A stretch of 52,506 nt of DNA from a virus (lineage: Duplodnaviria; Heunggongvirae; Uroviricota; Caudoviricetes), in IMG/VR virus record IMGVR_UViG_2534681604_000014, positions 1 through 52,506 of that record; one strand, written 5' to 3'. The translations under genes were made by a program, and so were the position numbers. The notes beneath the pieces were generated by a model. The model was not told the DNA's origin and did no database searches. It was given only the letters and a program-made list of their open reading frames with translations. Position 1 is the first letter of the stretch. Each line of letters opens with the position of its first letter. Positions 2,485 to 28,705 of the stretch are shown in pieces.

Positions 2485-3678
2485 GTGACCTGGGACGATC
2501 ACAAGAAGAATTTTGCTCGCCTGGCGCGAGATGGTGGTTACACCATCGCACAGTATGCCGCCGAGTTTAATCTTAACCCTAATACCGCACGTCGTTATCT
2601 CCGTGCCTTCAAAGAAGACACCAGGACAGCGGACAGCCGCAAGCCAAATAAGCCAGTCAGGAAGCCACTAAAAAGCATGATCATTGATCACTCTAATGAT
2701 CAACATGCAGGTGATCGCATTGCGGCTGAAATAGCGGAAAAACAAAGAGTTAATGCTGTTGTCAGTGCCGCAGTCGAGAACGCTAAGCGCCAAAATAAGC
2801 GCATAAATGATCGTTCTGATGATCATGACGTGATCACCCGCGCCCACCGTACCTTACGTGATCGCCTGGAACGCGACACCCTGGATGATGATGGTGAACG
2901 CTTTGAATTCGAAGCTGGCGATTACCTGATAGATAACGTTGAAGCGCGGAAGGCCGCGCGCGCTATGTTGCGTCGGTCCGGGGCCGATGTTCTGGAAACC
3001 ACTCTTCTGGAAAAGTCTCTTTCTCATCTCCTTATGCTGGAGAACGCCAGGGATACGTGTATTCGCCTGGTGCAGGAAATGCGCGATCAGCAAAAAGACG
3101 ATGATGAAGGTACTCCGCCTGAATACCGTATCGCGAGCATGCTAAACAGCTGTTCCGCGCAGATAAGCAGCCTGATCAACACCATTTACAGCATCCGGAA
3201 TAACTATCGAAAAGAAAGCCGGGAGGCGGAAAAGCACGCTTTGTCTATGGGGCAAGCTGGCATTGTTAAGCTGGCATACGAACGAAAGCGTGAAAATAAC
3301 TGGTCAGTGCTGGAAGCAGCTGAATTCATCGAGGCGCATGGCGGGAAAGTGCCGCCCCTGATGCTGGAGCAAATCAAAGCCGATCTGCGTGCTCCTAAGA
3401 CCAATACCGATGATGAGGAAAGGCAAACAGCCGTCGGTGGCCCTTCTCTTGAAGATCTGGACAAAGTTGCGCGAGAACGGGCCGCCAACCGCCGCGCCGA
3501 TGCCGCATTGTGGATTGAGCAGCGTAGGGAAGAAATCGCCGATATCGTTGATACAGGCGGTTATGGAGATGTTGATACTGAAGGTGTATCAAACGACCCA
3601 TGGCTGGAACAAGACCTGGACGAAGACGAGGAGGAAGACGAAGAAGTTACCCGCAAGCTATACGGGGATGATGATTAA
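2485..3678 (+). CDS. pacA: terminase small subunit PacA
   Basis: 397-aa ORF, GTG start; sequence recognised as P1 PacA; contains the pac site. Confidence 0.95.
2678..2836 (+). other. pac packaging site (4 + 3 TGATCA/G hexamers, Dam GATC sites)
   Basis: Hexamers at 2678, 2685, 2697, 2712 and at 2808, 2820, 2831 flank an AT-rich centre inside pacA; this is the P1 pac architecture. Confidence 0.9.
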
Positions 3679-5162
3679 TGGCCAGAAGTTGCGTAACGGA
3701 CCCACGTTGGCGCGAGCTGGTGGCGCTATATCGTTATGACTGGATTGCGGCCGCTGATGTTTTGTTCGGCAAAACACCTACCTGGCAGCAGGATCTGATT
3801 ATTGAGTCTGTGCAGGAACAGGGTAGCAAGACATCTGTTTCGTCTGGTCACGGTACCGGGAAATCAGACATGACTTCTATCATGATCATGTTGTTCATAA
3901 TCATGTATCCCGGTGCCCGCGCCATTATCGTTGCGAACAAAATTCAGCAGGTAATGACCGGTATTTTCAAGTACATCAAGATAAACTGGGCTACTGCCAC
4001 CAGCCGTTTTCCATGGCTTGCTGATTATTTTGTTCTGACAGAAACCGCTTTCTATGAGGTTACTGGTAAAGGGGTATGGACAGTTGTACCGAAGGGCTTT
4101 CGTCTGGGAAGTGAAGAAGCTCTCGCAGGTGAACACGCAGATCATCTTCTGTATATTATCGATGAAGCCTCCGGTGTCAGTGATAGAGCTTTCGGTATCA
4201 TCACCGGTGCTCTTACCGGACAGGATAACCGCATCTTATTGCTGTCACAGCCTACACGCCCAAGCGGCTATTTCTACGATACTCACCATAAACTGGCCAA
4301 GCGTCCTGGTAACCCTGATGGCGTTTATACGGCGATCACGCTTAACAGTGAGGAATCACCGCTGGTAACGCCAGCATTTATCAAAATGAAGCTGGCGGAG
4401 TACGGCGGGCGTGATAACCCTATGTACATGATTAAGGTACGCGGCCTATTCCCTAAATCACAGGATGGCTTCCTTCTTGGACGTGATGAGGTTGAACGCG
4501 CAACGCGGCGGAAAGTCAAGATTGCCAAAGGATGGGGCTGGCTTGCATGTGTGGACGTTGCTGGTGGTACGGGACGGGATAAGTCCGTTATCAATATCAT
4601 GATGGTGTCCGGCCAGCGAAATAAACGCCGTGTAATCAACTATCGAATACTGGAATACACAGACGTTACAGAAACGCAGCTTGCCGCCAAAATTTTCGCA
4701 GAATGTAATCCTGAGCGATTCCCAAATATCACCATAGCGATAGACGGCGATGGCCTGGGTAAAGCAACGGCGGATCTGATGTACGAGTATTATGGTATTA
4801 CCGTACAGCGTATACGCTGGGGTAAAAAGATGCATAGCCGTGAAGATAAGAGCCTGTACTTTGATAAACGTGCTTATGCCAACGTTCAAGCCGCAGAGGC
4901 CGTAAAATCTGGTCGTATGAGACTGGATAAGGGTAATGAAACTATTGAGGAAGCGTCGAAAATTCCTGTAGGGATTAACTCCGCAGGTCAATGGAAGGTG
5001 ATGAGTAAGGAGGATATGAAGAAAAAACTCAACCTGCACTCACCAGACCATTGGGATACATATTGTTTCGCTATGCTGGCGGATTATGTTCCCCAGGATG
5101 AAGTGCTTAGCGTCGAAGACGAAGCGCAGGTTGATGAAGCTCTGGCATGGCTTAATGAATGA
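3678..5162 (+). CDS. pacB: terminase large subunit PacB
   Basis: 494-aa ORF, start overlaps the pacA stop (TAATG); P-loop-like GHGTGKS. Confidence 0.95.
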
Positions 5163-5165
5163 ATA

Positions 5166-5182
5166 TTTGCTCTAATAAATTG
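5166..5182 (+). promoter_or_regulatory. C1 operator-like 17-mer
   Basis: TTTGCTCTAATAAATTG, 15 of 17 to consensus, immediately after the pacB stop. Confidence 0.6.
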
Positions 5183-5313
5183 TGTTTTTTAGCTACCGAT
5201 GTTACATTGAACCTGACCTCTTGCGCCTTGAGGCATTTTCGGTTTATGCTTATCAGGCACCTCATTAAAACGGGTGCCGGGATTGGAACCCCGGATAATG
5301 CAAAAGGCGACAC

Positions 5314-5337
5314 AGACGCCAAAAGCGTCTTTTTTTG
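5314..5337 (+). terminator. intrinsic terminator-like hairpin
   Basis: agacgc-caaaa-gcgtct followed by TTTTTTT. Confidence 0.6.
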
Positions 5338-5521
5338 TGTCATGCCATCGCACAGCCATACGTAGCACATAGCTCCGAGATCAATGGTAGTGCTGGCTGG
5401 GCTGCCGAAAGGCAGGCCGGTTCCCTTTTGCGCCGGTAGTTCCAACCCAGTCAGTGCTACCGCCATTGAGATTGGAACCTCACGCGGTAGCTCCTTAAGT
5501 TAGCAAAAGGAGGCTGCCATT

Positions 5522-5743
5522 ATGGCTACTATCCCTACCCCAACTCACCCTGAATTTATCTGGCGCTTTTACTCCTGCCAGAAACGTCACTATCACTTCG
5601 TTATCGCAACAACAGAAGATGAGGCCCGCTCTCAGCTTCCTGACGCCCCATGTATTTTCTCTGCCCGTTTTTCCACTGATTCACGCAATTCTCTCAGTTA
5701 CTGGTGTCTCCCTGTTAACGCTTCTGCTCAGGAGGGAGTATGA
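5522..5743 (+). CDS. small protein, icd-like (translationally coupled to antirepressor)
   Basis: 73-aa ORF; strong SD AAAGGAGG 8 nt upstream; 4-nt ATGA overlap with the next ORF; matches the P1 icd-ant layout. Confidence 0.5.
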   Translation: MATIPTPTHPEFIWRFYSCQKRHYHFVIATTEDEARSQLPDAPCIFSARFSTDSRNSLSYWCLPVNASAQEGV

Positions 5744-6855
5744 GAACGTCATTAGTCACCCGTGAAGAAATGATTGAGGCAATTGAACAGCACACAGCCT
5801 GTATCAGTACCAGGGATATACCGGGCGTTATTGCCAACTACTTCATGATCACCAAACAACTTTACCGGAGAAAGGACAAGAACGCGGTTCACCGCATTCT
5901 GCTAACCGATATCCGTGAATACCTGCTCGAACAGGGTCATCTGAATTACGCAACCGTCGCAGCCGAAGCACGCAAGGAGGCACACAGAATGAAAGCAACT
6001 AACGTTAAATCAGAAAAAATTCATGCAACTTCAGTTCAGGAATCAGAGCTGGTGGTTGTTCAGAATCAGTCTGATGAAATTCCCGTTCTGGAATGGCTGG
6101 GAGTGCGTGTAGTGACAACCAAGATCCTTGCTAAGGGGTATGGGACCGATGCGGATAACATCAAGAAGAACTTTTCCCGTAATGCCGAACGTTTTTGTGA
6201 AGGCAAGCATTTCTATAAAGTTATTGGAGATGATTTGAACAATTTGCGGGTGACTTTAAGTAACTCACAAAATCCCATCTCTCCTAAAGCCCGTTCACTC
6301 ATCCTCTGGACAGAACGCGGCGCTGCCCGTCACGCTAAAATGCTCGAAACCGATCAGGCATGGGCATTCTTTGAAAAACTGGAAGACAGCTACTTCCGGC
6401 AAAAAGAACAGCAACCGGTTGCAATCCCCCAAACATTACCAGAAGCCCTACGCCTGGCTGCCGAACTGGCTGAACAAAAGCAGCTTCTGGAACAGAAAGC
6501 CCACCAGCTAAATCAGCAGCTGGTAGCCGCCGCTCCTAAGGTCGATTTTGCCGACCGGGTATCAGTAGCTAAAGGGATCCTGATTGGGAATTTTGCAAAG
6601 GTTGTTGGACTTAAGCAAAACGCGCTGTTTGCCTGGTTACGGGAGAACGGCATCCTGATAGCGTCCGGCGGACGTAAAAATGTGCCATTCCAGCAGTACA
6701 TCAACGCCGGGTATTTCACTGTGAAAGAAGTGGTGCTAGATGATGAAGATGGCTACCAGATACGGCTGACGCCTCAATTAACGGGGAAAGGCCAGCAGTG
6801 GTTGACGCGTAAGCTGCTCGATGCTGGCTTGTTAAAACCGGTGGCGGCTGAATAA
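5740..6855 (+). CDS. antirepressor (AntA/ORF6N-like N-domain, KilAC-like C-domain), Ant1/Ant2-like
   Basis: 371 aa (about 42 kDa); internal in-frame ATG at 5989 with SD AAGGAGG gives 288 aa (about 32 kDa); C-terminal region looks like a KilAC/ANT domain. Confidence 0.65.
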   Translation: MRTSLVTREEMIEAIEQHTACISTRDIPGVIANYFMITKQLYRRKDKNAVHRILLTDIREYLLEQGHLNYATVAAEARKEAHRMKATNVKSEKIHATSVQESELVVVQNQSDEIPVLEWLGVRVVTTKILAKGYGTDADNIKKNFSRNAERFCEGKHFYKVIGDDLNNLRVTLSNSQNPISPKARSLILWTERGAARHAKMLETDQAWAFFEKLEDSYFRQKEQQPVAIPQTLPEALRLAAELAEQKQLLEQKAHQLNQQLVAAAPKVDFADRVSVAKGILIGNFAKVVGLKQNALFAWLRENGILIASGGRKNVPFQQYINAGYFTVKEVVLDDEDGYQIRLTPQLTGKGQQWLTRKLLDAGLLKPVAAE

Positions 6856-6887: not shown

Positions 6888-7739
6888 TTATTGCGCGCTT
6901 TCGGGGTTGTCGTTTACTGGCTGCCCCTTCTTAGTTTTACGGCTGCGCGTAACTGATGCGGCTGACTTAACCTTTTTCTCTTCGCGAGTGATGGCAATTT
7001 GTTTTTTTACATTTTCAATATCTGCCAGGCGATATATTTTTGCCTGCGGCCAGCGGTCGCAGATGATCGGTTCTATGGAGTCATAAAGGCTAAATTTTGC
7101 TTTCTCGAATTCACCGTTGATGATGATTCCATCACGGAGAGTTTCATCGCAGATAAACACGCCACACAGCGGCACATGGTAACTAACTGATTTACCGTTA
7201 TTGTAGTTAGGACTACTGGAGATGTAGTGAACGCGCAGCATTGTTTCGCTAAAGCCGTGTACGCGCATACGGAATTTTTCATCCTCCGGGTACTGCTTCA
7301 TTAGCTCTTTTGTTGCTTCCAGGTTCTCTATGTATTTCGCACTGTGCTCATTGAACCCCGCGCTTTTTTGGATGCGAATGTCCTTATCAATCAGATGAAT
7401 AATGCGGCCAGCGGTCATGTTGACGCTGTTTACAGCTTCTGTCTGATAGGTCGTAACCTTACGCACACCGCGAAGGATGTTAGGCACAGGATATAAAATA
7501 GTCTTTGGGATATTGAGGTCTGGGTACTGTTCCAGTTCCCGCGCCATTAAAGTCCATTTATCAATTTCAGCCTGAATGCTGTCCGTTTCTTTGAACGGCA
7601 GAACGACAACCGGGCGTACAGGACGACCGTCGCTGGCGGCATCAACGTGTTGGGCGCGTGCAACAGCTTTTTTTAGAAAGAGATCCCTGAAGCTGACGAA
7701 CTCCTGGTACAGTTGTTCGCCGTAGACATAATTTATCAT
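6888..7739 (-). CDS. c1: C1 repressor of lysis
   Basis: 283-aa ORF recognised as P1 C1 (MINYVYGEQLYQEF...); strong SD GGAGGAGG upstream. Confidence 0.95.
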   Translation of the reverse strand: MINYVYGEQLYQEFVSFRDLFLKKAVARAQHVDAASDGRPVRPVVVLPFKETDSIQAEIDKWTLMARELEQYPDLNIPKTILYPVPNILRGVRKVTTYQTEAVNSVNMTAGRIIHLIDKDIRIQKSAGFNEHSAKYIENLEATKELMKQYPEDEKFRMRVHGFSETMLRVHYISSSPNYNNGKSVSYHVPLCGVFICDETLRDGIIINGEFEKAKFSLYDSIEPIICDRWPQAKIYRLADIENVKKQIAITREEKKVKSAASVTRSRKTKKGQPVNDNPESAQ

Positions 7740-7833: not shown

Positions 7834-7850
7834 AGATTTATTAGTGCATT
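7834..7850 (-). promoter_or_regulatory. weak C1 operator-like site between c1 and coi
   Basis: AGATTTATTAGTGCATT, 14 of 17 to the reverse-complement consensus. Confidence 0.3.
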
Positions 7851-8059
7851 TATTGTGAGTCTAACTGGTTAGTTGCCATGAGATATTCGATTGTGTCAGT
7901 GAGATCATCCAGGTCGTCTGGGGTGATGCGGTACTCCTGATTGGATATCTTTGAGTAGTGTTCAGCAATGGCGCGAGCAGCGTCGGTTTCGGCGGGGTCT
8001 ACAGATAAAGCGTTAGAGCAATGTCTAACATCGTCGATGGTTGGTGGAATGAAAGCCAT
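7850..8059 (-). CDS. coi: Coi (C1 inactivator)
   Basis: 69-aa ORF directly upstream of c1 on the same strand, as in P1 ImmC. Confidence 0.8.
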   Translation of the reverse strand: MAFIPPTIDDVRHCSNALSVDPAETDAARAIAEHYSKISNQEYRITPDDLDDLTDTIEYLMATNQLDSQ

Positions 8060-8297
8060 AATTATGCCTCACTGTATTGACAACACAGAGCCTGAAGCTC
8101 TGACCTACTGTTTCACCCATGTTCCATGCTGGGGTTATCTATCAACATTGCGCTGTGTGTAAGATGAGCAATGCATAGCGATAATGCCGTTGTATAAGGT
8201 TTCCCTGTTTGCTCATTTCCTTCTGAGCCGCTCTACAACGCTGAAGACACATTAAGTAGTGAGTCCAAAGTCGTATTACGAAACGGCGGCAAAACTA

Positions 8298-8314
8298 TAA
8301 TTTATTAGAGCAAT
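8298..8314 (-). promoter_or_regulatory. C1 operator (Op99-like)
   Basis: Reverse complement is ATTGCTCTAATAAATTA, 16 of 17 to consensus. Confidence 0.75.
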
Positions 8315-8380
8315 TGTCAAACAACTATGAAAAACAATCCAGTATTTGGCTGGTGGAGTGGGATTTTTCTCTCAAATTTT

Positions 8381-8397
8381 ATTGCTCTAATAATTCT
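8381..8397 (+). promoter_or_regulatory. C1 operator (Op99-like)
   Basis: ATTGCTCTAATAATTCT, 15 of 17 to consensus. Confidence 0.65.
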
Positions 8398-24100: not shown

Positions 24101-24908
24101 CCACATCAACGACTGTACTGGTCCCGTTTGCGTCAAAAGTACCGGTAGGCAAGCGGTGAGCGCCAAGAAATTCAGCTTTCCGTGATAGGCGCAGGCGTAA
24201 CCGCTTCATGTTTGAACCTGAAACAATGGACGGCGGCACAATCACACACATGAATCCGCCTGGCTTTATCTTGTCCAGCATGCGGAGCATGAAGTAAGAC
24301 CCCATGTCCGTTTCTTCTGCGTAAGGCTTATCGATGTTGCGTGTGTTATCACGACCGCCGAACGGAACGTTACCCACAACATGGTCGAATGAATCGTTAG
24401 GCGTGCTTACAGCCAGTTGTTCGAACGGGGAAATCTGTACGCTGTCTTCCGGATGTAACAGCTGGTTTATACGACCGGAAACACTGCTGATCTCAGTCGC
24501 GGTCATCACCGTACCAACCGGTTTTGTCTCATTAAAAACGCCGGTGCCCGCCGATGGTTCCAGAGTGTTACCTACGTCCGCGCCGTAGAGCTTCATGATC
24601 TCCCAGACACCTTCAGCGATCGGCTTTGGTGTGTAATATTCGGAGACGGACCCGCCAATGCCGCCTTCACCAGTGTACCCGGCCAGGATCTGGCGCTGTT
24701 CATCTGTCAGTGTCGCGCCGTCCACCAGTGAATTAAGCAAATCTATCGCCTTCTGATTCGCCTCCCGGCGCAGTCGGTCATAGCTTTTGCCTTCCACCTT
24801 TTCCACGCCGTATTTAATCGGCGCTCGGTGAGATGCTATTGCCCTAATGTATTTCAATATTTCGCTGACACTTGAACAGCGAAACACCCCCATAGATAGC
24901 TTGTTCAT
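18141..24908 (-). CDS. darB: DarB anti-restriction protein (N6-adenine MTase plus SF2 helicase)
   Basis: 2255 aa; MTase motifs EPSAGTG and NVPFGG; helicase GLGKT and DEGH. Confidence 0.9.
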   Translation of the reverse strand: MNKLSMGVFRCSSVSEILKYIRAIASHRAPIKYGVEKVEGKSYDRLRREANQKAIDLLNSLVDGATLTDEQRQILAGYTGEGGIGGSVSEYYTPKPIAEGVWEIMKLYGADVGNTLEPSAGTGVFNETKPVGTVMTATEISSVSGRINQLLHPEDSVQISPFEQLAVSTPNDSFDHVVGNVPFGGRDNTRNIDKPYAEETDMGSYFMLRMLDKIKPGGFMCVIVPPSIVSGSNMKRLRLRLSRKAEFLGAHRLPTGTFDANGTSTVVDVVLMRKHSAEMAEKIPLVDKSTLESANVLWPTFISGKWFEKDGRRFVHGTQEKGFQGRIEVRADGQIDNQALKAKLIHRFESRIDWSLLDMAEPSPTADVVDEGEMRLINGVWQKYAGGRWIEADAGKELKIDAASYGADSWEALQRNLTTTEGRLGMTFTQMANVRDKYTTSISDDMVQLVDWINSQPEKYRERLYRGAMIGRMLIEYQDMKAAGHSAEQIEQQRLSLVSRLQAEIDRFGNPGRGPIAKLSGSGARAWFAFRGAIKLDGTISDELTGKLVTHDSSASYDSTSYQDTLRYLYSDLTRDPIQLDDFRLAFTGELPASDEELLNLLASTPGIAVSPYGGIVPFARATSGDINEIVAPKQEFLATLPDGPVKNNVLNQLAAIEEKRIKTPAENIRFKLNSRWFDRSVILEFLQENGYPDLRYVQSVQLEGDEMVSDTYHGGDGLFVGHRYGVVQRKDKETGEIRYEWDRKSGENATGFPAQLEKYLNGARIGGKDSATANGYREQMALLEDQFNKWIKTHDRYDELVAKYNDVFNSNIPYEHSGDPLGLKGLSGKRQPFDYQNSEVRRLSEDGRGILGFGTGLGKTTTALALEAFNYENGRSTRTAYVVPKSVLENWYYEAKEFLSEEAFSNYLFVGLDVLMDSDQIRQVPVLDENGKPVLGTDGTPVMRDALKLADEATITARMNAIPHSNYRAVVFTKEQYARIPLRDDTVDEHAQDMLYDFVAAGRVASAMDSDSHRKEAARRRVLSEYSDTGTEKAEKYPYFEDMGFDSVIADEGHNYRNSYKNGREASQLAYLPTSAVAQSARDMAIKNAYLMKKNGGRGPVLLTATPVVNTPIDAYNMLSHVLPKEYWQKMGIYGPDDFVKFFGKTRLETVQKISGEVEEKMALVGFENLDALRGIFHRWTTLKTAEDVKDTVEIPELDEHQQDAPLTEEQLAAYEELRQQAEAAAKANNGVTTSVNEDGVIEHEKARPIFSIIRDMDRVCTDMDLYYRRITYRFLPEYADAVQQLADSLPKQATSEDDDSDDSITQQSQYSLIDKGEFIQLQVPEAFEQEVNKRLARFGIDEQTVTHPVTPKYAKLIATLKEFFPEGKQIIFTDEKTQHQKLKRIICNALNLEPSKVGILNAQTVAEAGKTGKKLKAVKPPKELSDEPTDAQIAKYNEQMALYDAYIAQQNEMSLGGLEKIAADFQEGRTPIIICNKKAEVGINLHRGTTDIHHLTLPWTPASIAQRNGRGARVGSNRASVRVHYYCGKGSFDEYRLKTLKRKAGWISDILRSDKSEMENADANDMIEMQMYTAKDDGERLAMMQVQMDKAKAAQRARQKEQATIDLQNYIKAQHAAGEDVEVLTAELERSKAELEKTTAEVAKFKQAAMAKAADNADWKARWGSVHHTDRTLLAQYRASLKSAIQRKANISQAISRYEKLLNRTQKAATDIKRLRPLVEDAINKGILDVDPDLVNHANEFLVIGDRSWRVGQYYDCAGDIVRIKSLDFDSQRADVEIIFTFKGTKSGNWDVKTLDKQVDVTPDEDAVMQKISGGVSIAGINDIISCDDFYRFQQRGMIKITDSYGVQTTESGYSIDFVGTYTDPLKHAVYPDRRDGALKSSIAKWVLGMMSEGNNRQVRLAEVFLTELFGSNYGDVIASYGDTLSPEAIQEKIADAIARMPEKTSQGATRNGDSELEVTNAIFGINEFRASDFEITTAQFGTIGIYSNKDEIKQAMDAASARIAAERKANLNHAVAALTQSWVTAIREAATTGKITPAIAEVVNDGSKFMDAYKMDSVQLPSAYGQLSYRMTYNLVSMFSDLAILGLVDLNEVTPELLSMRKNHVEILQRINTVLAGRTDEEKQADADRINLALGNITEEEIAARNEKQEELSSIQGDATSIAQSLGLNYRVSTADLKMMYAPKFAAGEVFGLQEASGMKGILFRAKDAIKAKFGARWLPAKAKNSDFPGNWWIIETKHNVADVLAVIQQYA

Positions 24909-28688: not shown

Positions 28689-28705
28689 ATTGCTCTAATT
28701 AATTT
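28689..28705 (+). promoter_or_regulatory. C1 operator upstream of ssb
   Basis: ATTGCTCTAATTAATTT, 16 of 17 to consensus. Confidence 0.7.

Follow-up and report, generated by a model that had tools for sequence, protein, structure and literature searches.

C4 antisense and IsrK-family RNAs in the leader of an additional immI-type operon: a probable immunity module of a P1-like phage-plasmid

C4 and IsrK-family RNAs ahead of an icd-like gene

In a viral contig of 52,506 nucleotides (nt) from IMG/VR (IMGVR_UViG_2534681604_000014, Caudoviricetes; its whole length is called the window below), positions 5166-5521 are, judging from sequence comparison, very probably the regulatory leader of a P1-type immI operon (c4-icd-ant), which is carried as an extra module in a P1-like phage-plasmid. 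This assignment is carried by the membership of two structured RNAs in known families, by the architecture of the interval and by base complementarities that co-vary among relatives. Screening of the whole window with all Rfam models gave two matches above the curated thresholds, C4 and IsrK.

The C4 antisense RNA gene occupies 5380-5467 on the plus strand and matches RF01695 over the full model length (model positions 1-87; 76.7 bits versus a cut-off of 45, E = 2.5e-13), so that the c4-type regulator suspected in the original prediction, made from the sequence letters, is borne out by a covariance-model search. Its fold, a 17-bp closing helix around two hairpins, has a predicted energy of -46.4 kcal/mol (z = -5.5), a stability reached by none of 200 shuffled sequences. 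Compensatory changes were found in 17 of the 27 base pairs, and 92.4% of the alignment cells were paired, as opposed to 30-56% in slid controls, with none of 500 shuffles reaching the observed values; the long closing helix enclosing two hairpins is, therefore, supported by co-variation. The GNRA hairpin ctgcc-GAAA-ggcag noticed originally is hairpin 1 of C4, albeit located at 5402-5415 instead of about 5407-5420. A C4 antisense RNA would be expected to be processed from the operon transcript by RNase P, giving a stable RNA of about 77 nt which represses in trans. By analogy with the annotated 77-nt C4 of P1, the mature RNA of the window would extend from about 5386 to 5464/5465 and end in GCCA; a G stands at the predicted +1 position, and the GCCA tail follows the closing helix. 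The length and the RNase P processing of P1 C4 were taken from the P1 GenBank annotation and general knowledge. An ARAGORN scan of 5000-5800 returned no tRNA, and C4 is thus not a tRNA gene.

Two segments of C4 are exposed for pairing: the b' element CCUUUUGC (5424-5431) in the 12-nt loop of hairpin 2 and the a' element GUUCCAA (5439-5445) in the single-stranded junction. Their perfect complements follow on the same strand at +4 and +35 from the C4 3' end, namely the 7-bp target a2 (UUGGAAC, 5472-5478), placed in the loop of a 4-bp mini-hairpin (5467-5482), and the 8-bp target b2 (GCAAAAGG, 5503-5510), which overlaps by 4 nt the icd Shine-Dalgarno sequence (SD) AAGGAGG at 5507-5513. A second copy of both targets lies upstream of c4 in the same orientation: a1 (UUGGAAC, 5283-5289), complementary to a', and b1 (GCAAAAGG, 5300-5307), complementary to b', both inside the IsrK-like RNA. 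For the composite motif TTGGAAC-N(5-30)-GCAAAAGG, 0.00 occurrences are expected in the window and three are present, namely a1-b1, a2-b2 and the complement of b'-a'. The short stretch tcccttttgc (5422-5431), originally noted as complementary to gcaaaagg at the SD (5503-5510), is accordingly one side of the b'/b2 interaction and co-varies with the other across relatives. The proposed 7-bp stem gttccaa/ttggaac has a different meaning from the local leader hairpin it was taken for: both halves are present, with ttggaac at 5472-5478 and gttccaa at 5439-5445 rather than 5449, and they form the a'/a2 antisense-target pair.

The second match, to RF01394, identifies an IsrK-family leader small RNA at 5257-5336 (plus strand; match 5257-5335, full-length 1-77, 62.4 bits versus a cut-off of 50, E = 4.7e-11 over the whole window). 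It has the two 5' hairpins and the Rho-independent terminator of this family: hairpin 1 (5257-5277) shows compensatory changes in four of seven pairs, hairpin 2 (5278-5293) combines an invariant stem with a variable 8-nt loop displaying a1, and b1 is single-stranded ahead of the terminator. The latter (5314-5336, plus strand; AGACGC-CAAAA-GCGTCT followed by T7, with a 6-bp stem and a 5-nt loop) was found by a terminator scan and is kept in all relatives. The terminator-like hairpin had thus been spotted correctly from the letters, except that it belongs to a separate upstream IsrK-family RNA which went unrecognised and of which it forms the 3' end. Transcription must read through 5314-5336 to yield C4 and the icd-ant mRNA. 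Overall, all five sequence features named in the original prediction exist; two of them were given shifted coordinates and one, the occlusion of the SD (see below), is within chance expectation.

The Rfam motif c4-a1b1 (RF03163) matches the window at 5244-5297 with 23.1 bits, far from its cut-off of 46.7, which leaves the leader outside this family by the curated threshold; this weak match overlaps the isrK match. The leaders of P1 and P7 match c4-a1b1 (51 and 55.5 bits, respectively) and not isrK, in Klebsiella phage 020009 both models match the same place, and the seqA region of P4 matches isrK with 60.8 bits. Overall, the two models capture a single functional element, namely the a1/b1 (seqA) leader.

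Co-variation of the recognition elements and the overlapping reading frame

The comparative set included 80 viral contigs encoding close Icd relatives, which were searched with a covariance model built from six C4 sequences; widened with P1, P7, P4, phiP27, Stx phages and one Klebsiella phage, it contained 19 distinct C4 types. Every Icd-relative locus with available upstream sequence had a C4 gene ahead of icd. Three helix scaffolds can be distinguished among the C4 genes, whereby the recognition elements vary on an otherwise constant scaffold. On the scaffold of the window, the a alleles UUGGAAC and UUGAGAC are combined with the b alleles GCAAAAGG and GUCAAAGG in all four possible ways, and matching 2-nt changes are present in all three copies (a'/a1/a2 or b'/b1/b2) at fixed offsets; in the relatives, too, a1 and b1 carry the same alleles as a2 and b2. 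All 19 C4 types can pair with their own a2 and b2 by at least 7 bp each, as opposed to only 12 of 342 non-cognate C4/target combinations with at least 7 bp at both sites, mostly those sharing alleles. A degenerate C4 pattern scan of genome contigs, which produces many chance matches in GC-rich genomes, added 28 further C4 loci from diverse bacterial genomes; among the matches listed, 27 of the 28 exhibited the same co-variation and none came from Salmonella. Such concerted 2-nt changes in three copies represent a clean natural experiment for RNA-RNA specificity, the principle itself not being new.

A 39-codon open reading frame (ORF; 5384-5503, plus strand) lies on C4 and is called an 'ash family protein' by PGAP; in identical plasmids, RefSeq carries this annotation on the C4 RNA gene. 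The 39-aa product matches Pfam PF10554 (Phage_ASH) with 32.4 bits against a cut-off of 26, only over profile positions 49-86 of 107, and a search of NCBIfam gave no match. If a small Ash-family protein were the functional product of 5384-5503 and the RNA structure incidental, the Pfam score and the RefSeq annotation would be accounted for, but this is very improbable for several reasons. In P1, P7 and Klebsiella phage 020009, the homologous frame stops after 14, 31 and 28 codons, respectively, and the ORF is, therefore, not conserved among homologous loci. Moreover, compensatory base changes maintain the helices and not the codons, the annotation of P1 gives c4 as an RNA of 77 nt whose targets are defined, and no protein-level explanation is apparent for the three-way co-variation of the recognition elements. 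With the frame broken in P1, P7 and others and with variation preserving helices instead of codons, the Ash family looks like a shadow of the RNA gene; the 39-codon ORF of the window is probably such an annotation shadow, and translated C4/CI RNA genes seem to form at least part of the basis of PF10554. The main value of the present analysis is this correction, which concerns an RNA gene labelled "ash family protein" in the RefSeq plasmids with the same sequence.

In five other loci, from F004, an IMG/VR P1-like contig, P4, phiP27 and an Stx1 phage (L005, L006, L088, L089 and L090), the ORF starting at the AUG in the 5' arm of C4 continues in frame into the Icd-like ORF. This fusion probably explains the 137-aa 'cI gene product' of P4 and the long 'regulatory protein' calls over the C4 of Stx phages. 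Phage D6 (L004) has a second, weaker C4-like match at 2116-2195 (43.7 bits with the model built here), some 470 nt upstream of its main C4. The hairpin-2 loop of this match is short, and 7 nt that complement its junction follow 3 nt downstream; it may be a tandem or degenerate second antisense RNA.

Proposed control of icd and ant translation

Downstream of the leader, the icd-like gene (5522-5743, plus strand) encodes 73 aa with 79% identity to P1 Icd (NCBIfam phage_ICD_like). Its stop codon overlaps the start of a candidate antirepressor gene (5740-6855, plus strand) in the ATGA of 5740-5743. The 371-aa product of the latter has Pfam ORF6N and KilAC/ANT domains and is 55% identical to P1 Ant1 overall, being near-identical over the C-terminal ~140 aa; an internal Ant2-like start is present at 5989, preceded by an SD at 5974-5980. 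Upstream of the IsrK-family RNA, a C1-repressor operator-like site, TTTGCTCTAATAAATTG (5166-5182, plus strand), the equivalent of P1 Op51/Oc4, has 2 mismatches to the 17-bp C1 operator consensus and is collinear with the annotated Oc4 of P1 and P7. The locus, therefore, shows the P1-type immI order c4-icd-ant1/ant2 together with the icd/ant translational overlap and a C1 operator. C1-operator-like 17-mers occur seven times in the window against 0.32 expected; the other six (1-3 mismatches) are at 1859-1875, 7834-7850, 8298-8314, 8381-8397, 24838-24854 and 28689-28705, and those around 7834-8397 are the counterpart of the P1 c1/coi operator cluster.

Two promoter-like elements on the plus strand are proposed solely by collinearity with annotated P1 promoters, since a generic sigma-70 scan was negative. 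The first (5180-5208; TTGTGT, 17 nt, TGtTACATT with an extended -10) overlaps the operator and would be the equivalent of P1 P2c4/P51a. The second (5221-5250; TTGCGC, 18 nt, TATGCT) is collinear with TTGACC/TATAGT of P1 and has counterparts in D6 (TTGCGC/TATATT) and F004 (TTGACT/TATATT); judged by its position, it may be equivalent to P1 P1c4/P51b and to PisrK and would start transcripts near 5257.

On this architecture we base a scheme in which RNA processing, action in trans and a decoy role of the leader are the inferred parts. Transcription would start at the two promoter-like elements, one of them under the C1 operator, and most transcripts would end at 5314-5336 as an IsrK-family RNA of about 80 nt, displaying a1 in a loop and b1 single-stranded. 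Read-through transcripts would contain C4, and from these RNase P and 3' trimming would excise an RNA of about 80 nt, by analogy with P1. Its b' (CCUUUUGC) and a' (GUUCCAA) would then pair with b2 at 5503-5510 and a2 at 5472-5478 on the mRNA of its own operon, cover the icd SD and block icd translation; antirepressor synthesis would also be blocked because of its ATGA translational coupling to icd. The a1/b1 leader RNA would compete with the mRNA for these surfaces of C4, a decoy or anti-antisense that sets the threshold of repression. The predicted duplex of C4 is stronger with the IsrK-like RNA (-35.6 kcal/mol) than with the icd leader (-25.5 kcal/mol; intramolecular structure ignored in both), which is consistent with a decoy role. 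With recognition sequences other than those known from P1 and P7, the module should represent a separate immunity specificity.

Tentatively, this could be extended to a programmable switch of three RNAs, a decoy IsrK-like RNA, C4 and a target leader, in which the a/b alleles are interchangeable, P1-like plasmids hold two orthogonal copies (this module and a P7-type immI), each of two independent antirepressors thus having to be silenced, and the terminated leader serves as a high-affinity sponge setting the induction threshold. If true, the sponge reading would also explain the long-unexplained a1/b1 sites of P1.

Several points weigh against the assignment and the scheme built on it. Both promoter-like elements score below the threshold of the sigma-70 scan, and no promoter is visible between the terminator and c4, which makes C4 synthesis dependent on read-through. 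The RNase P cleavage site and the 3' end of C4 were placed from the P1 annotation only, and an action of the extra Ant on C1 is likewise putative, given a protein only 55% identical to P1 Ant1. In P4, the same a/b elements cause transcription termination and do not serve as a decoy, and, to our knowledge, the role of a1/b1 in P1 was never settled. Read-through of the terminator has an experimental demonstration only for Gifsy-1 IsrK (PMC4825925).

The P4 example leads to the first alternative, according to which C4 would pair with a1/b1 (seqA) and a2/b2 (seqC) on nascent transcripts, mainly causing premature termination instead of ribosome blocking. P4 immunity indeed consists in premature transcription termination of the replication operon (cited in PMC4825925). 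The P4 CI RNA matches the C4 model and the P4 seqA region the isrK model, with the same three-way complementarity, and in the window a1/b1 stand directly upstream of an intrinsic terminator. In P1, moreover, translational repression by C4 also lowers downstream transcription, which can be counted for termination as well. However, b2 overlaps the SD in essentially every relative, pointing to ribosome exclusion as the selected contact, and the gene context is that of P1 immI (icd-ant with ATGA coupling), not of the P4 alpha operon. A P4-type immunity is, therefore, unlikely for this module.

A second alternative is a cis switch of the kind described for Gifsy-1, where termination gives short IsrK and read-through gives a longer form. 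Downstream of these, a processed and stable RNA, STnc1160, is located, and the short RNA, by binding to the long transcript in trans, switches on translation of the antirepressor; Hfq binding, the short and read-through isoforms and the trans-activation are known only from the experiments on Gifsy-1 (PMC4825925). Transferred to the window, the C4 segment would act mainly in the unprocessed read-through transcript, translation of the 39-codon ORF as an upstream ORF would open the leader for icd, and the short IsrK-like RNA would activate by pairing with a'/b' of the long transcript. Such a switch is possible though doubtful; it is largely compatible with repression by processed C4 and may run alongside it. 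Its analogy is drawn from orf45 of Gifsy-1, which starts at A107 of the isrK transcript, corresponding to the AUG at C4 model positions 5-7, and which is translated (SPA tag), is switched on by IsrK in trans and is required for the translation of anrP (PMC4825925). The window ORF, which matches Phage_ASH, terminates at 5501-5503, within the SD hairpin and with 18 nt left to the icd AUG. Against this reading, the frame breaks off early in P1 (14 codons) and in Klebsiella phage 020009 (28 codons), the AUG of the window ORF (5384) lies in helix 1 of C4 and is preceded by no more than a weak GAG, and, unlike Gifsy-1, the window has a separate icd with a strong SD of its own that b2 overlaps.

The local structure around the SD offers a third alternative, namely that a cis hairpin chiefly controls the icd SD independently of any RNA acting in trans. 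This hairpin (5486-5518, plus strand) is predicted to pair GGUAGCUCCUU with AAGGA(G)GCUGCC, leaving the 5' part of b2 in the loop. The minimum-free-energy fold of the leader contains it (5486-5496 against 5507-5518), with a predicted SD that is 81% paired and 19% unpaired. The stem ctcctt/aaggag expected from the letters was given with exact coordinates (5491-5496 and 5507-5512) and does form in the prediction, but the occlusion is no better than with shuffled sequence: shuffled upstream sequence leaves the SD 20% unpaired on average, 59% of the shuffles occlude it at least as well, and the leader fold of 5466-5545 has z = -0.07. This local stem is restricted to few lineages, a similar CUCCUU...AAGGAG hairpin with b2 in its loop being found also in three unrelated loci (L099, L111 and L131). 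In the consensus fold obtained from an alignment of 21 isrK-type leaders, the GGAG of the SD is paired with a CUCC next to a2 on its 3' side, the individual pairs being formed in 19-21 of the 21 leaders; in the window, CUCA replaces the conserved CUCC, and the local CUCCUU takes its place. This anti-SD pairing shows no co-variation, since the SD side is invariant, and the SD of P1 and P7 leaders is mostly open in predicted folds. Control chiefly by the cis hairpin is, on balance, improbable, and SD sequestration, as modelled, is a plausible theme of the family that is putative in the window.

The block GGAGGCUGCCAU(U/C)AUGGCU (5513-5530 in the window, from the SD to the third codon of Met-Ala-Thr) hardly varies across a range that reaches from P4 to prophages of Serratia and Photorhabdus, and the recognition elements flanking it are hypervariable. 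A 3-bp GCC/GGC stem places the AUG of this block in a loop.

Genomic setting and comparison with known systems

The gene order around the leader is pacB (3678-5162), the regulatory interval, the icd-like gene, the antirepressor gene and then c1 (6888-7739) on the opposite strand. The module thus sits between pacB and c1 and not at the canonical immI position (sim - immI - kilA - repL). As only 24 bp separate pacB and c1 in P1, the segment from the operator to ant represents an insertion of 1.7 kb. The one paper found to mention this insertion described it as "two short hypothetical orfs and ... ant" (PMC6906374). A minus-strand ORF at 5152-5466 (104 aa; hypothetical in the D6 annotation) was negative in Pfam and NCBIfam searches and was treated as spurious.

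Plasmids were compared by means of a 611-bp regulatory query (window 5150-5760), which matched 451 PLSDB records. It was 100% identical in several P1-like plasmids of Escherichia coli and E. fergusonii, including pTZ20_1P (MN510447), and 94% identical to phages RCS47 and JL22. One of the identical plasmids, NZ_CP099334 from E. fergusonii, contains a second, canonical immI with a P7-type C4 beside kilA; the predicted cross-pairing between its P7-type module and the window module is weak (-13 to -17 kcal/mol). The same plasmid has a chromosomal-type nitrate reductase Z operon (narU, narZ, narH, narW, narI; L086 5178-14287) beside an IS5-family element and, elsewhere, the ompC porin gene, which together are an unusual cargo for a phage-plasmid. 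Two c4-icd modules with different recognition alleles were also seen on single viral contigs (L072/L085, L019/L077 and L013/L083; IMG/VR 651053023_000001, 2648501186_000003 and 2698536372_000019), one pair being about 2.2 kb apart, and the stacking of immI modules seems to be common among P1-like elements. A C4 gene and leader identical to those of the window were found at L142 3101-3188, a 3.7-kb contig of a 'Bacillota bacterium' metagenome-assembled genome, which is almost certainly a mis-binned fragment of an enterobacterial P1-like plasmid.

The window module is a typical and complete second immI module with an IsrK-type leader, belonging to a known family and carrying a new specificity allele; it departs from the characterised systems of P1 and P7 in three respects, namely in its recognition alleles, in where it lies and in being a second copy. 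Having its own specificity and being present in many P1-like resistance plasmids, it is relevant to their superinfection immunity, heteroimmunity and prophage induction.

The closest known system is immI of P1 and P7, whose C4 belongs to the same covariance-model family (RF01695) and has the same fold. The annotated P1 order of Oc4 (Op51), P2c4, P1c4, a1, b1, the 77-nt C4, a2, b2, icd and ant1/ant2 is shared by the window, and in all three b' is in the loop of hairpin 2, a' in the junction and b2 at the icd SD, with the ATGA overlap downstream. They differ in the recognition alleles, which are UUGGAAC and GCAAAAGG in the window, UUGACAG and GUUAGUGA in P1, and UUAGCAG and GAUUGUGA in P7, as well as in the helix sequences of C4 (scaffold I versus scaffold III). 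The window leader fits the isrK model as opposed to c4-a1b1 for the P1 and P7 leaders, its Ant has an ORF6N middle domain, and the module coexists with a P7-type immI in a plasmid identical over the 611-bp query. P1 immI itself stands beside sim/kilA-repL, whereas the window module stands between pacB and c1. The Rfam motif c4-a1b1 (RF03163; Weinberg et al. 2010, PMC2864571) models the a1/b1 region upstream of c4, without a counterpart of the terminator part of the isrK model.

The P4 CI RNA matches the C4 model with 74.9 bits, in line with the isrK match of its seqA region, and P4 shares both the a/b three-way complementarity and the same GGAGGCUGCCAU(C/U)AUGGCU block downstream. As opposed to the window, its leader is separated from CI by a spacer of 107 nt instead of 44 nt, and its gene context is different.

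In the Gifsy-1 IsrK/STnc1160/orf45-anrP system (RF01394), the IsrK family is that of window positions 5257-5335, with a C4-family RNA and an antirepressor gene downstream. In both, the leader is complementary to a downstream structured RNA, and the terminator of the window implies short and read-through isoforms here as well. Unlike the window, Gifsy-1 has no icd, and orf45, lying over the C4-like element, is coupled directly to the antirepressor. Lysogens contain large amounts of both IsrK and STnc1160 (bioRxiv 10.1101/787010). Compensatory mutations in Gifsy-1 paired G28 with C162 and G31 with C159 (PMC4825925); G28 and G31 fall at a1 positions, and C159 and C162 at a' positions, of the RNA family of the window. 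The published Gifsy-1 model makes no mention of C4 and calls the downstream partner orf45 (PMC4825925). By matching positions (G28/G31, C159/C162 and the AUG at 107) and not by alignment, the downstream RNA of Gifsy-1 would be the C4 equivalent. Overall, the comparative data join three Rfam entries (C4, c4-a1b1 and isrK) and the literatures on P1, P4 and Gifsy-1 as one tripartite RNA system.

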